Assembly (NCBI GenBank): GCA_000004985.1
Contig: GG738918.1
Length of the DNA stretch: 64,000 bases
Source: Naegleria gruberi
Lineage: Eukaryota
Strand: one strand, 5' to 3'
The notes under the pieces were generated by a model. The model ran no database searches. It was not told the origin of the DNA and worked only from the letters and a program-made list of their open reading frames with translations. Positions 58,530-62,799 of the stretch are shown here, in pieces; the stretch's first letter is position 1; every line of letters starts with the position of its first letter. The position numbers and the translations under genes are program-made.

Positions 58530-59006
58530 TCTCTCTATATATTTGTTATTTGTTCTTTGTTCTTTGTTATTATTAACAATATGGTGTTATAGCAATTTCT
58601 ACTATTAAGCAGCTAATTATTGTTGCTATTTGCTAAAATATAATTATTAACAGAGAGGGTGAAGAAAATATCTTTACACGCACAGATGAGTTCGTTCTCT
58701 CGAGTTGTGTTGGTTGTGTGCGCTGGTGGGGTATTTTTTTCAAAAACTGTTGACAACCGTTGTTGAATGTGTGAATTGGCTTGACCTTAATTACTGTAGG
58801 TTGTGCACAACCAAAATAAGGCCTCCATGAGCAGTTACAAAGGAGGAAACAAACTATTAAGGGTCTGTCTGGTATGGAACGTCCAAATGACGCGACTATT
58901 AAGGTCTCGAAGGAGGGAGAATACAAATTTAGCCGAGCATCATATTGTAAGAATCCACAATATTCTAAGGATGCACCTTAGCCGTATGGGTAAAATTATA
59001 TGGGTT

Positions 59007-59894
59007 TTAATGTTGATCATCCTCTTCTAGAGCTTTTTCTAATAATTCTTGTTCAAATTCTTCATCATCATGAGCATATAATGCCTCCCATTCGATGATT
59101 TGTTGATTCAGAGAAATGATTGGAAGTTCCAATTGAAGGGTCTCGAGTTGTCTATCTAAGGTGTTTAATTTCTTTGGATTGGTATGATCAATCAAGTTCA
59201 TTAAATCAAATCTTAATTCATCTGTCACTTGATTGGAATCATCTGCTTTGACAATCAAATTGATTTTAGAAATGAGAAGATTAACTAGCTTTTCTTCCAT
59301 ATTCTCATAGAGTGGAACGAACATGGTAAGGAGTTTCAAGTTGGTTGGACTAGGTGGTTTGAACAAGCTCTCTATTATGATGGCTCCAATTTTGGAAGAA
59401 ATCAAATCATTGGAAAGTAACTTGGCAATGAATTTGATATTATTTGATCTCTTTCTCATATATTCAAATTTTTGAAGTTTCACATCCTTTCCTTCATCAA
59501 TGACCAACTCTTCCTTAAATCCGATCTGGCACTTGGTCAAGAGCTTTTTCTTCAATGCAATTATAACATTTTCATTCAAATTTCCAACATTTTCCTTCAA
59601 TTGTTCTTTCATTAAATTTCCCATCGTATTGTACAATCCTCTCTCAACAGCATGCGAATAGATCATATCGACCCATTCCGATTGCATTCTCTCACTTCCA
59701 TCAAATTGATTAAAATTCTTAAAAAGGGCACTTCTCATCGATTCATAATTTTGGGCAGTCGGAAGAGTACTCGATTTATCAAAGCAAGAAACAAGTCGAG
59801 ACATGAGAAAGGAAATATACCCTATTTTCTGATCAATTAATTCATCACCAGGTGATGACAATGATGTGGAACTGCTTGATTGTTGTTCTGACAT
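59007..59894 (-). CDS. MIF4G-domain-like protein (eIF4G middle-domain fold; SLIP1/CTIF/NOM1-like)
   Basis: RKRSNNIKFIAKLLSNDLISSKIGAIIIESL resembles the MIF4G RRSLGNIKFIGELFK..ML.E.I motif. Acidic C-terminus. Confidence 0.45.
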   Translation of the reverse strand: MSEQQSSSSTSLSSPGDELIDQKIGYISFLMSRLVSCFDKSSTLPTAQNYESMRSALFKNFNQFDGSERMQSEWVDMIYSHAVERGLYNTMGNLMKEQLKENVGNLNENVIIALKKKLLTKCQIGFKEELVIDEGKDVKLQKFEYMRKRSNNIKFIAKLLSNDLISSKIGAIIIESLFKPPSPTNLKLLTMFVPLYENMEEKLVNLLISKINLIVKADDSNQVTDELRFDLMNLIDHTNPKKLNTLDRQLETLQLELPIISLNQQIIEWEALYAHDDEEFEQELLEKALEEDDQH

Positions 59895-59960
59895 TTTTTT
59901 TTGATGACAAGTTTTTCAAAACATACTTTTTCCGCTTAATCTAAAAATAAGTTTAAAAAA

Positions 59961-60160
59961 ATGCTTTTTAAAAATCGTAATTTTGTTGTTTCGCTTACCA
60001 ACAAATGCACAGAGGAAGAAATTATTCATTTAATAACAAGTAATGGTGGAAAGGTGAAAGGTGATCCTAACGAAGCCATCTTAATAGTTGATGTGAATAA
60101 AAGGGATGGTAAAAGTGTGGATTATCAATACATTACAACTTGTTTGAAACGAAAGGAAGT
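59961..60160 (+). CDS. Possible 5' exon encoding a BRCT-like domain, candidate splice (intron 60161..60212) into the P-loop NTPase ORF
   Basis: The 67-aa segment NFVVSLTNKCTEEEIIHLITSNGGKVKGDPNEAILIVDVNKRDGKSVDYQYITTCLKRKEV has BRCT-like spacing. A GTTAGT donor after ...GAAGT and a ttccttag acceptor give an in-frame junction ...KRKEV-V-LNPIEYQAMVRL... Unspliced, the ORF stops 4 codons later. Confidence 0.35.
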
Positions 60161-60237
60161 GTTAGTTTTTTAAATAATCATATTAATCAAATATATTCCA
60201 TCGTTTCCTTAGGCTGAATCCAATAGAATATCAAGCA

Positions 60238-62190
60238 ATGGTAAGACTGTCAACATATGCATTCAGGGATTGGACAATACAAGAAACTTGTTCTGCTCTT
60301 GTTTACAAAGCAGGGTTTAGTTTGAAGGAAGCAACCGAGTACTATCTCCATAGTTTTAGTGGCAGAGGATTGGAAGTGTTGTTGCGAACTGGTAACAAAC
60401 TTTCTTTTATGGGACCCAATTCTGTTGCTCTCTTGGAATATTGGGTTGAGAATGATTTGCTTCCATGTTCCTACTTGTATTGGACAAAAGCAAAGACCAG
60501 AGAAATGTTAACAAAATCAAAGAATGATGGAGGAATGGGTTTAAGCGAGGATGTTGCACAAAACTTTTATAACCTAGATGGGAAAGCAATAGAGTCTCTA
60601 ATTAGTCATTCCTTTTGTCAAAACAATTGTTTGATAGATTTAGAACTGTATGAATCTTTGAAGAGTTGGATATTTTCATTGAGAGAAACAGAGCTACTTG
60701 TTCCCTTAATAGGTTTCAATTTGATGAATATCTCCATCACTATGCCAGTTTTCGATAATTCAATGCCTTATCAAAATAACAAGAAATGTGTTCAGAATAT
60801 GGCTGTTGAATTTTTACACAATCTCAACACAGAAGAAATTAGATGTAAATCTCTGGTTTGTAATTTTTCCCATTTTGGATTTGGTAAGACAAGATTTGGT
60901 GTTCAATTTCTAAAGTTACTACGAAATGCAATCTCTGACGAATCTGTGTACATTGATGGTAAATCTTTCTCACAATATTTAATGGATCAGTTTAGTACTG
61001 ATCAAATTCACAGTTTGCTAAATGCAAAAATGGTTTATATTAATTTTGTTGAAATAACTGAAAATGTCACATTTGACATAATTCTCAGTTCTTGTATTGT
61101 AAATACATTGAAAGTACCTCCTCCAAATGATTCGAAACCATTTGAGGAGTGGATAGCCTCACTTGGCCCAATTTATATTATCTTGGACGAATTCCAAATA
61201 TTTCTTAAACAGACTGCAATAGATCAAAATACCGTTAAAAGTTACCATATAATATGGAATTCTAGCTTAGTCAAGTTACAGAAGCTTTCTAATGTGTTTT
61301 TGTACATTTGTGGGAAAGGTTTATTGTTTGATCTGATTGAAAAAGGACAGTTTAGAGAAGAGTCAAGTTACAGAAGCCCAACTGCTGTTTATTCTGTCAA
61401 TTTGTCCTCTCTTGACATTGGTGACATTAAAACAATAATGACACATTTTCAGCATTTTAAATCACTTCCTGATGAAGTTACAACAAAACTTGCCAATCAT
61501 GTTCATGAAATGACAGGAGGTGTTCCAATCCTTGTACATTATGCGTTTATGTATTCAAATCCTGACATTCAAGCCTCATTTGAAGGAATTAAACAAACTT
61601 TGGACAACAACATATCACACGCACCCCCACAAACCATTAAGCCATACGGCAATGCTAACTTTTCCCGAATTTTGAAAGATATGTACAAAGTATTGGTTTG
61701 GGCAAGTATATTGAAGAAAACTTTTTCAACAAAGGATTCAATTACTGTTTCAGAGATTCCTGAATTTAGTGGACTAGAAAATATTAGCATACTCCATCTA
61801 TCCATCTTTTGTAATTGTTACGTGGAAGAGGTAGCTGACCAAAAAGGAAGGTTTCAGTTCGTGTTTCCTAAATGTATCATTGATAGCTATATTGAGGATA
61901 ATGACTTGGACATTTCACATATTTATCAAATTTCTAAACAGTATCCATTTCTTGTTAGTAATGATCATATATTGGAGTATCTTACAGATTTCTACCTAGT
62001 TATTCCATCAAAAAGTGATCTTACCGAGTGTATTGGTCCATTGAATGCAATGATATTAAAAAAGTTGCCAGATTGGAAAAATCAAGATATTAATCTGAAA
62101 GACATTATGGACGTGGTAGTTAAGGGATGGAATGTAATCGAATCAAAGGAAACGATTGAACCCAAAAAAAAGAAATCCAAAAAGAAGTAA
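60238..62190 (+). CDS. P-loop NTPase of unassigned family (Walker A GFGKT, Walker B IYIILDEF), about 650 aa, Lys-rich C-terminal end
   Basis: VCNFSHFGFGKTRFGVQFLKLL is Walker A. The hydrophobic strand IYIILDEFQIF about 95 aa later is Walker B. Spacing is as in AAA+/STAND-type ATPases. The C-terminus is ~330 aa with no recognised domain. The true 5' end may include the upstream exon. Confidence 0.55.
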   Translation: MVRLSTYAFRDWTIQETCSALVYKAGFSLKEATEYYLHSFSGRGLEVLLRTGNKLSFMGPNSVALLEYWVENDLLPCSYLYWTKAKTREMLTKSKNDGGMGLSEDVAQNFYNLDGKAIESLISHSFCQNNCLIDLELYESLKSWIFSLRETELLVPLIGFNLMNISITMPVFDNSMPYQNNKKCVQNMAVEFLHNLNTEEIRCKSLVCNFSHFGFGKTRFGVQFLKLLRNAISDESVYIDGKSFSQYLMDQFSTDQIHSLLNAKMVYINFVEITENVTFDIILSSCIVNTLKVPPPNDSKPFEEWIASLGPIYIILDEFQIFLKQTAIDQNTVKSYHIIWNSSLVKLQKLSNVFLYICGKGLLFDLIEKGQFREESSYRSPTAVYSVNLSSLDIGDIKTIMTHFQHFKSLPDEVTTKLANHVHEMTGGVPILVHYAFMYSNPDIQASFEGIKQTLDNNISHAPPQTIKPYGNANFSRILKDMYKVLVWASILKKTFSTKDSITVSEIPEFSGLENISILHLSIFCNCYVEEVADQKGRFQFVFPKCIIDSYIEDNDLDISHIYQISKQYPFLVSNDHILEYLTDFYLVIPSKSDLTECIGPLNAMILKKLPDWKNQDINLKDIMDVVVKGWNVIESKETIEPKKKKSKKK

Positions 62191-62538: not shown

Positions 62539-62799
62539 TTACTTGAGAGACTTTCTTTCAGCGATCAATGCAGCTTGGGCCTTTCTTTGAGCCTTCACTT
62601 GTTCTTGCATTTCAACACTGTTCACCTTATTCATTGGATTGGAAATTGATGAGGCAACAAATCTCTTATTGGAGATTAATCTCATCTTGGAACGACCAGT
62701 CTTTTCCTTTCCAAGCAAGTGCTTATCAGTTACGTTAGCAGCTGGAGTTTGATGCTTAACTTTTCCTGCTCTAGTCAATGATCCGTGAGTCTTGGCCAT
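62539..62799 (-). CDS. RPS30: 40S ribosomal protein eS30 with extended C-terminal tail
   Basis: MAKTHGSLTRAGKVKHQTPAANV...KTGRSKMRL..NKRFV matches eS30 (KVHGSLARAGKV..QTPKV..KK.KTGRAKRR..YNRRFV). It is 86 aa versus the typical ~60. Confidence 0.65.
   Translation of the reverse strand: MAKTHGSLTRAGKVKHQTPAANVTDKHLLGKEKTGRSKMRLISNKRFVASSISNPMNKVNSVEMQEQVKAQRKAQAALIAERKSLK

Follow-up and report, generated by a model that had tools for sequence, protein, structure and literature searches.

The closest described systems to the protein discussed here are three kinds of nucleoside triphosphatase (NTPase) of known structure, and each places an AAA+ or related core ahead of a helical lid and a winged helix. 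The archaeal proteins PABY2304 (2qen) and SSO1545 (2fna), which we take to belong to the Pfam family ATPase_2/Arch_ATPase (PF01637) in the 'MNS' clade of STAND NTPases and often to be followed by a DUF234 domain, have precisely this module order; in the NB-ARC or AP-ATPase proteins (plant NLRs, CED-4, Apaf-1) an N-terminal adaptor or effector precedes the NTPase, lid and winged helix; and in the Orc1/Cdc6 proteins (1w5t/1w5s; ORC1/4/5, Cdc6) the winged helix is C-terminal, with eukaryotic ORC1 additionally having an N-terminal chromatin-reader domain (BAH). Here we describe a gene, NAEGRDRAFT_53730, in a 64,000-nucleotide (nt) stretch of Naegleria gruberi DNA (assembly GCA_000004985.1, contig GG738918.1), which we call the window and to whose letters all coordinates refer. 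This gene is probably mis-annotated at its 5′ end, its most likely coding sequence (CDS) being join(59961..60160, 60213..62190), which encodes a protein of 725 amino acids (aa). The protein would begin with a compact BRCT domain, continue through a pair of SAM-like helical repeats and an ORC/Cdc6-STAND-type AAA+ NTPase with lid and winged helix, and end in a shortened C-terminal remnant followed by a polybasic tail. The parts of the proposed gene are as follows.

59961..60160, plus strand: proposed exon 1, unannotated, 200 nt (ATG start, 66 codons and 2 nt), with most of the compact BRCT domain
60161..60212, plus strand: proposed spliceosomal intron of 52 nt, GTTAGT ... TTAATC (branch-like) ... 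CGTTTCCTTAG
60213..62190, plus strand: proposed exon 2, opening 25 nt 5′ of the annotated ATG and ending with the TAA stop at 62188-62190
60238..62190, plus strand: currently annotated CDS of NAEGRDRAFT_53730, with 100% identity to P0001

As currently annotated, NAEGRDRAFT_53730 is a 'predicted protein' of 650 aa that starts at ATG 60238, and the corresponding 650-codon open reading frame (ORF; 60238..62190, plus strand) is 100% identical to XP_002670175.1 / D2W0H9_NAEGR (our P0001). Its frame stays open back to 60187, with no ATG ahead of 60238. Upstream, in this AT-rich window (GC content ~33%), lies an ORF of 70 codons (59961..60173, plus strand) that ends in TAA at 60171-60173, and the gap from this stop to the next ATG is only 64 nt. 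Neither the 70-aa product nor the 725-aa spliced product is found in a collection of 15 billion proteins, and because of this absence we treat the upstream ORF as unannotated. A literature search found no paper that mentions the NAEGRDRAFT_53730 locus or its accessions.

Judged by profile match and codon usage, the upstream ORF of 70 codons is genuinely coding and contains a real BRCT domain. Against Pfam BRCT_2 (PF16589), the 70-aa product scores 34.3 bits (E 3e-8; gathering cutoff 27.3) over profile positions 2-80 of 86, which bears out the label 'BRCT-like' that a sequence-only reading of the window had given it, and the N-terminal 73 residues of the spliced product score 35.8 bits over positions 2-85 of 86; in other words, the match lies above the gathering threshold across nearly the whole model. 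The domain is compact, with 72 residues over 84 profile positions. Scored for codon usage by log-odds, with 25 long ORFs from the window as training set, exon 1 reaches +18.4 bits over its 66 codons, the controls being 17.9 ± 8.3 in frame and -41 ± 22 off frame. At the C-terminus of the domain, the helix pattern [YW]-[IV]-x-x-C-...-L-x-x-x-x-Y agrees with what we take to be the BRCT consensus. The loop after strand 1 reads VVSLT, with Ser-Leu where the BRCA1-type phosphate-binding loop presumably has Ser-Gly (VVSG), and phosphopeptide binding can therefore not be assumed for this BRCT domain. The same exon (59961-60160) also gives a weak Pfam match to EAD6 (PF19958; E 0.025, 15 bits), Effector-associated domain 6, an adaptor described in NTPase-based conflict systems; this match is probably noise under the BRCT match.

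How would this exon be joined to the ATPase? We consider it quite likely that the splice 60160^60213 is real and that the intron is removed. The donor GTTAGT occupies 60161-60166, so that exon 1 ends at 60160, 10 nt ahead of the TAA at 60171-60173 that terminates the 70-codon ORF and that lies inside the intron; the acceptor ...TTTCCTTAG ends at 60212, and exon 2 begins at 60213, 25 nt ahead of ATG 60238. The full intron (60161..60212) reads GTTAGTTTTTTAAATAATCATATTAATCAAATATATTCCATCGTTTCCTTAG. The exons join in frame as ...KRKE-V-LNPIEYQA-MVRL..., with a junction codon GT|G for Val, the annotated Met becoming Met-76, and the peptide across the predicted junction being EVLNPIEYQAMVR. All of the features and positions that the sequence-only reading had listed (the ORFs, the GTTAGT donor, the 52-bp intron, the acceptor 25 nt 5′ of the ATG and the in-frame join) are present, and its estimate of ~720 aa for the spliced product compares with the 725 aa that we compute.

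The candidate intron was compared with a set of ~10 convincing introns in the window, each joining long open frames. Members of the set measure 44-167 nt and have TAG or CAG at the 3′ end, in many cases preceded 15-30 nt upstream by a yTRAy-like element; our candidate, with its 52 nt, TTAG acceptor, TTAAT branch-like motif and in-frame join, fits this set. Read as codons, the intron scores -16.5 bits over 18 codons on the same log-odds scale, which gives it a non-coding look. A bare in-frame GT..AG pair is unremarkable here, seven such pairs being found among the nearby sites in a hand count of the GT/AG list; of the seven, the pair 60161/60212 is the only one to have G at +5 together with T at +6, to end in a TAG acceptor rich in pyrimidines and to leave the BRCT domain whole. 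Additionally, splicing lengthens the BRCT_2 match into LNPIEY, from profile positions 2-80 to 2-85.

Two further features of the junction region deserve a place here. Paired with the same donor, an alternative in-frame acceptor, TAAG ending at 60245, would lengthen the intron to 85 nt and leave out LNPIEYQAMVR; its context is poor, it lies downstream of the first AG, and its use would at most be minor. A possible role of LNPIEY as the opening of the first helical repeat was considered too, MAFFT having aligned it with the LNP/LIP that opens the homologue repeats. A repeat hidden Markov model (HMM) built without this copy favours a start at LSTYAFRDW, with the extension scoring no better (13.0 vs 13.7 bits), so that the LNPIEY alignment was dropped as evidence for upstream coding.

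A second strain offers a view of how this region varies. A 1491-bp ENA contig (L005), ~97% identical to the reference and spanning 58826..60333, contains exon 1 at 97% identity, and the precomputed Pfam match of the ORF in this strain is also PF16589. Within the intron, the T-run of L005 is longer and the A-run shorter, for a net change of +1 nt that removes the TAA: the unspliced ORF, which ends in VLVF* in the reference, ends in VLVFFNNHINQIYSIVSLG* in L005, and its length goes from 70 aa to 85 aa. In L005 both splice sites, GTTAGT at the donor and CCTTAG at the acceptor, are intact, as is the spliced frame. In the short stretch from the acceptor to the annotated ATG (60213-60237) there is a single strain difference, 60225 A>T, which is synonymous in the spliced frame, and exon 1 shows three synonymous and two amino-acid changes in its 66 codons, with no indels. 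The 66-nt intergenic stretch just 5′ of exon 1 (59895-59960) has many indels and substitutions between the strains. The variation between the two strains is thus of the kind that an intron would be expected to show.

Downstream of the junction, the protein can be divided into modules by family alignment and by a modelled structure.

60250..60696, plus strand: two helical repeats, spliced residues ~80-150 and 151-228, SAM-like by pattern only
60766..60780, plus strand: family signature PYQNN, just ahead of the N-terminal helix of the ATPase core (family alignment)
60775..61407, plus strand: AAA+ alpha/beta core, residues ~255-465, with Walker A, Walker B and CGKG
61408..61617, plus strand: helical lid, residues ~466-535 (model helices 469-534)
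61630..61872, plus strand: probable winged-helix-like module, residues ~540-620, with NCY...FP motifs (helix/beta-hairpin pattern in the model)
61873..62187, plus strand: C-terminal helical remnant (alignment A3) and polybasic tail KKKKSKKK (62164-62187)

The helical repeats follow the pattern Y-x-x-W-[ST]-x-x-E ... GG-x-GL ... W-V, which occurs in one to three copies per homologue (alignment A4); the repeat HMM built without the window copy scores that copy at 13-14 bits, no Pfam model matches the repeats, and they are modelled at a predicted local distance difference test (pLDDT) of only 50-77. The Y-Q-N-N core of the PYQNN signature is conserved in most family members that cover the region, the exceptions being P0012 (YFVNR) and P0010 (AFQDN). 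Walker A, GFGKTR at 60877-60894, whose Lys is residue 292 of the spliced product, follows the strand at residues 280-284 of the model, and Walker B, IYIILDEF at 61171-61194, lies on the strand at 387-392; both are conserved in the homologues, and their placement at strands 1 and 3 of an alpha/beta core is that of an AAA+ / ASCE P-loop NTPase. A conserved CGKG (61303-61320) ends strand 4, in the sensor-1 position. In the lid, T-G-G-[VI]-P, a GxP-type motif (61513-61536), sits between the helices at 487-501 and 505-513, and its G-[IV]-P is kept across the family except in P0007 (R-I-P). The NCY and FP columns of the next module are likewise conserved in the family alignment.

The structural picture comes from AlphaFold2, which with an alignment of 14 sequences reaches a pLDDT of 70-95 over residues 255-660 and falls below 50 from residue 665; a single-sequence model, with a pLDDT of 36, was useless. 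The order of strands and helices in the former is that of an AAA+ core, then a helical lid, then a helix/beta-hairpin module. With Foldseek, the top match in the PDB is A. pernix ORC2 (1w5t; E 2.5e-6, 442 columns, template modelling (TM) score 0.48 on the target), and the other matches include SSO1545 (2fna), the NB-ARC domains of NRC3/NRC2/NRC4, human ORC4/5 and Cdc6, and PABY2304 (2qen); CED-4 is also among the best fold matches of the modelled core. Core and lid are thus both structurally similar to solved AAA+ proteins, the alignments to ORC2 and SSO1545 running to 420-440 columns and extending through the lid. The model supports an ATPase fold of the ORC/Cdc6-STAND type within AAA+, with no single clade winning clearly; the GxP-type lid motif and the presence of 2qen and 2fna among the top matches make us lean to the STAND side. 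The elements of a STAND protein (core, helical domain with GxP and winged helix) can all be recognized, the winged helix being a probable assignment that we draw from the lengths of the alignments to ORC2/Cdc6 and SSO1545.

At the level of sequence, the ATPase stands apart. No Pfam family matches the ATPase of the window protein or of its relatives, and the family profile finds no match among PDB sequences; weak isolated hits in the Pfam, PADLOC and PDB-sequence searches (KAP_NTPase at E 0.0097 in one homologue, BrxC at 0.013 and DrmC at 0.0052) were not credible. The sequence-only reading had called the protein an NTPase of unassigned family and, from the spacing of its motifs, had guessed at AAA+/STAND; the former description holds in that no Pfam family is matched, and the latter guess is borne out at the level of fold by the matches to ORC2, SSO1545 and NB-ARC.

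What are the relatives of this protein? In an exhaustive HMMER search, 1.84 billion representatives yielded 13 proteins, among them the N. gruberi protein itself and three from Willaertia magna (KAL9649768.1, KAL9648688.1 and KAL9654628.1), with the remaining members being fragments and full-length proteins on ENA, JGI and Logan environmental contigs. A profile search of a word-indexed protein database with alignment A1 found only two proteins, neither of them new. The conserved motifs of A1 are PYQNN, [FY]-G-x-GKTR, hhhhDE, CGKG, G-[IV]-P and NCY...FP. One of the environmental contigs also bears REV3, AVEN, MACPF and DSPc genes and is therefore eukaryotic; indeed, every relative of named or inferable source is eukaryotic, and the others lie on unassigned environmental contigs. 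The family is thus small and so far found only in Heterolobosea and on unassigned, probably protist contigs.

The full-length homologues differ from the window protein at both ends. In P0003, P0006, P0007 and P0013 (for example, L006:3001-5598 and L007:3001-5574), the first ~60 residues are rich in Ser and Thr, with 8-14 Lys or Arg and 0-3 Asp or Glu, and these N-termini, which resemble mitochondrial presequences, suggest that the ancestral family was organelle-targeted. At the other end (P0002, P0003, P0005, P0006, P0007 and P0012; alignment A3), the homologues share a conserved FE.L ... (S/G)PDK ... IQxKN, by which motif the C-terminal domain resembles PD-(D/E)xK nucleases; neither Pfam nor PDB sequences yielded a match supporting a nuclease fold for these C-termini. 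The C-terminus of the window protein aligns with the first part of this domain and ends before GPDK...IQxKN. The nearest relative, ~40% identical and found on ENA, JGI and Logan environmental contigs (L002:330-1952, also L003 and L004), likewise ends early with a basic tail and is without the PD-(D/E)xK-like part. Two frame shifts, one near L002:1093-1133 and the other near 1560-1566, break its ORF into three pieces, and the first of these shifts recurs in the independently assembled JGI contig L003; L003 and L004 both end before the second. This nearest-relative gene may be a pseudogene.

Is the locus, then, one spliced gene, two genes or a gene beside a relic? A number of observations weigh against a single spliced gene. 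The donor has T at +3, where the local introns have A in 10/10 cases (GTAAGT in 8 and GTATGT in 2), so that GTTAGT conforms to neither form of the local donor; GTAAGT is strongly enriched at ORF-joining positions (9/20 occurrences), and GTTAGT, at 2/19, is at background with no enrichment. A literature search on the Naegleria donor consensus found nothing. The gain in BRCT_2 score from splicing is just 1.5 bits. The 27-nt string across the junction has 0 matches in JGI metagenome contigs, in which the N-terminal 271 aa as query also found no relatives, and the 725-aa product is absent from the collections examined. Among the relatives, tblastn shows no homologue with a BRCT domain (Willaertia L006-L008; L002-L004; L001): the Willaertia genes are single-exon, and the nearest relative has no BRCT upstream, the ORF 5′ of L002 being unrelated; the BRCT-ATPase architecture therefore has no comparative support. 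Residues 1-85 have a pLDDT below 50 in both AlphaFold2 models, for the reason that the alignment holds no diverse BRCT rows. Finally, the roles that we consider below, as a switch, in partner recruitment and in the nucleus, are ones that we infer. The splice proposed in the sequence-only reading accordingly fares well in its frame, typical length, acceptor and branch-like motif and less well in its donor, with T at +3 vs the local A.

Taken together, these points lend some weight to a reading with two independent genes, one for a stand-alone mini-BRCT protein (70 aa in the reference and 85 aa in the second strain) and one for a 650-aa ATPase from ATG 60238, the GT..AG pair being a coincidence. 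The current annotation does begin at 60238, chance in-frame pairs are expected here, as the count of seven illustrates, the donor is off-consensus at +3, the unspliced ORF by itself exceeds the BRCT_2 threshold, no relative has a BRCT domain, and Naegleria tolerates very short spacers, the ATG of the neighbouring MIF4G gene being just 66 nt from 59961. However, a mere 64 nt would have to accommodate the 3′ untranslated region (UTR) and poly(A) site of one gene and the promoter and 5′ UTR of the next; the C-terminus of the stand-alone protein would differ by 15 residues between strains that are 97% identical and that conserve both splice signals; and without the splice the BRCT profile stops at position 80 of 86. 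A single-BRCT protein of 70 aa would also be unusually small. We regard two genes as unlikely, if worth keeping in mind. A decaying relic, perhaps an exon no longer in use or a piece left by gene duplication, unexpressed and lying ahead of an ATPase that works from Met-60238, would account for a weakened donor and for a BRCT domain seen in no homologue, and two amino-acid against three synonymous changes in 66 codons are too few to show purifying selection. Yet the ORF is intact in both strains, its Pfam score exceeds the threshold, in codon usage it looks exactly like expressed in-frame genes, and it is free of indels whereas the adjacent 66-nt spacer is full of indels and substitutions, all of which leaves a relic distinctly improbable.

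The sequence-only reading had also raised a different origin for the ATPase, horizontal acquisition of a bacterial 'AAA-ATPase-like' gene of the PF09820 type. There is an analogy in layout: the full-length homologues, with their P-loop ATPase followed by a C-terminal E...PD...QxK domain, recall prokaryotic proteins such as PF09820+PF08011 (PDDEXK_9), the usual pairing, or ATPase_2+DUF234, and PABY2304 and SSO1545, both archaeal, are among the best matches in structure. At E <= 10, however, there is no match to PF09820, PF01637 or PF08011 in the 13 family members or in the homologue C-termini. The Walker A context of PF09820 is RPRRFGKS, from which the F/Y-G-x-GKTR of the family differs; 5/13 relatives are from Naegleria or Willaertia and the rest are on unassigned environmental contigs, one with REV3, AVEN and MACPF; the identifiable relatives are all eukaryotic; and GC content and codon usage match the host. 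Such an acquisition now appears very improbable indeed. A spliced gene encoding a BRCT domain and a eukaryotic AAA+ ATPase is the reading that we carry forward.

With this gene structure, the likenesses to the systems named at the outset can be drawn more closely. To PABY2304 and SSO1545 the window protein is alike in its module order of AAA+ core, helical lid and winged helix, in the F/Q after Walker B (DEFQ) and in the GxP-type motif of the lid, and its full-length homologues bear a C-terminal domain that is PD-(D/E)xK-like by motif. It differs from them in being eukaryotic with an N-terminal BRCT domain and helical repeats, in matching neither PF01637 nor any other Pfam family, with 13-16% identity in the structural alignments, and in the family features PYQNN, CGKG at strand 4 and an additional helical insertion after helix 1 and before strand 2. 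With the NB-ARC proteins it shares the logic of an N-terminal adaptor followed by NTPase, lid and winged helix; however, its N-terminus consists of BRCT and repeats rather than CC, TIR or CARD, it has no C-terminal LRR, WD40 or TPR sensor repeats (Pfam) and no NB-ARC Pfam match, and its Walker B is hhhhDE, not hhhhDD. More broadly, PF01637, PF00931, PF05729 and related models have no match in the 13 family members at E <= 10.

The fold match to Orc1/Cdc6 spans core, lid and C-terminal winged helix, and a BRCT domain ahead of this ATPase is an arrangement analogous to the BAH domain of eukaryotic ORC1. Unlike Orc1/Cdc6, which is universal, the window family has members only in Heterolobosea and among unassigned sequences that are probably protist; it has no HMMER-detectable similarity to any PDB chain, and searches for ORC/Cdc6 homology (PF13401, PF09079 and similar) gave no Pfam or PDB sequence match. 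As for BRCT_2 proteins, no BRCT-plus-AAA+ protein of this family occurs elsewhere in the databases searched.

How might such a protein work? By analogy with ORC/Cdc6 and STAND proteins, it would most likely act as a nucleotide-dependent switch or oligomeriser, with ATP bound at GFGKT and DE and with the BRCT domain and helical repeats recruiting partner proteins. The Naegleria copy would have diverged from relatives with a presequence-like N-terminus and a PD-(D/E)xK-like C-terminus, and its apparent gain of a BRCT domain and basic tail, with the nuclease-like core lost, would be in keeping with a nuclear role and not an organellar one. The role in DNA-damage or phosphopeptide signalling that the sequence-only reading suggested is conjecture. 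One can extend these ideas to a mitochondrial, heterolobosean family of STAND/ORC-like ATPase-nucleases (SAM-like repeats, AAA+, winged helix, PD-(D/E)xK), one N. gruberi member of which was rebuilt by exon gain, with the BRCT domain replacing the presequence, the nuclease core lost and a nuclear-localization-signal-like tail, into a BRCT-tethered nucleotide switch of the nucleus with a part in DNA-damage or chromatin signalling; in its entirety, we consider this scenario improbable.

Several consequences follow for annotation and for comparative work. The reference gene model of N. gruberi would be corrected, a whole BRCT domain being at present missing from the proteome, and a small, protist-restricted AAA+/STAND-like family outside all Pfam models comes into view. 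The BRCT-plus-STAND-like ATPase architecture is seen in no other family member and, if the splice is true, makes a tidy case of a domain gained through acquisition of an exon, with a C-terminal module lost alongside. What is new is the domain combination and the uncurated family; the fold class and the logic of an adaptor joined to an NTPase switch are already well known, and the wider impact is modest.

The gene is flanked by two others on the opposite strand.

59007..59894, minus strand: MIF4G-domain gene NAEGRDRAFT_81930, divergent neighbour, its ATG 66 nt from 59961
62539..62799, minus strand: ribosomal protein S30 ORF, convergent neighbour, 86 aa

The Pfam match of the S30 ORF spans only residues 3-56 of its 86 aa, and its exact product is not present in the protein collection, so that the annotated model probably differs, for example by an intron or another 3′ end. 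In the second strain (L005:1097-1117), the ORF of the MIF4G gene (P0015) has a 13-residue N-terminal extension and in-frame deletions just after the shared Met.

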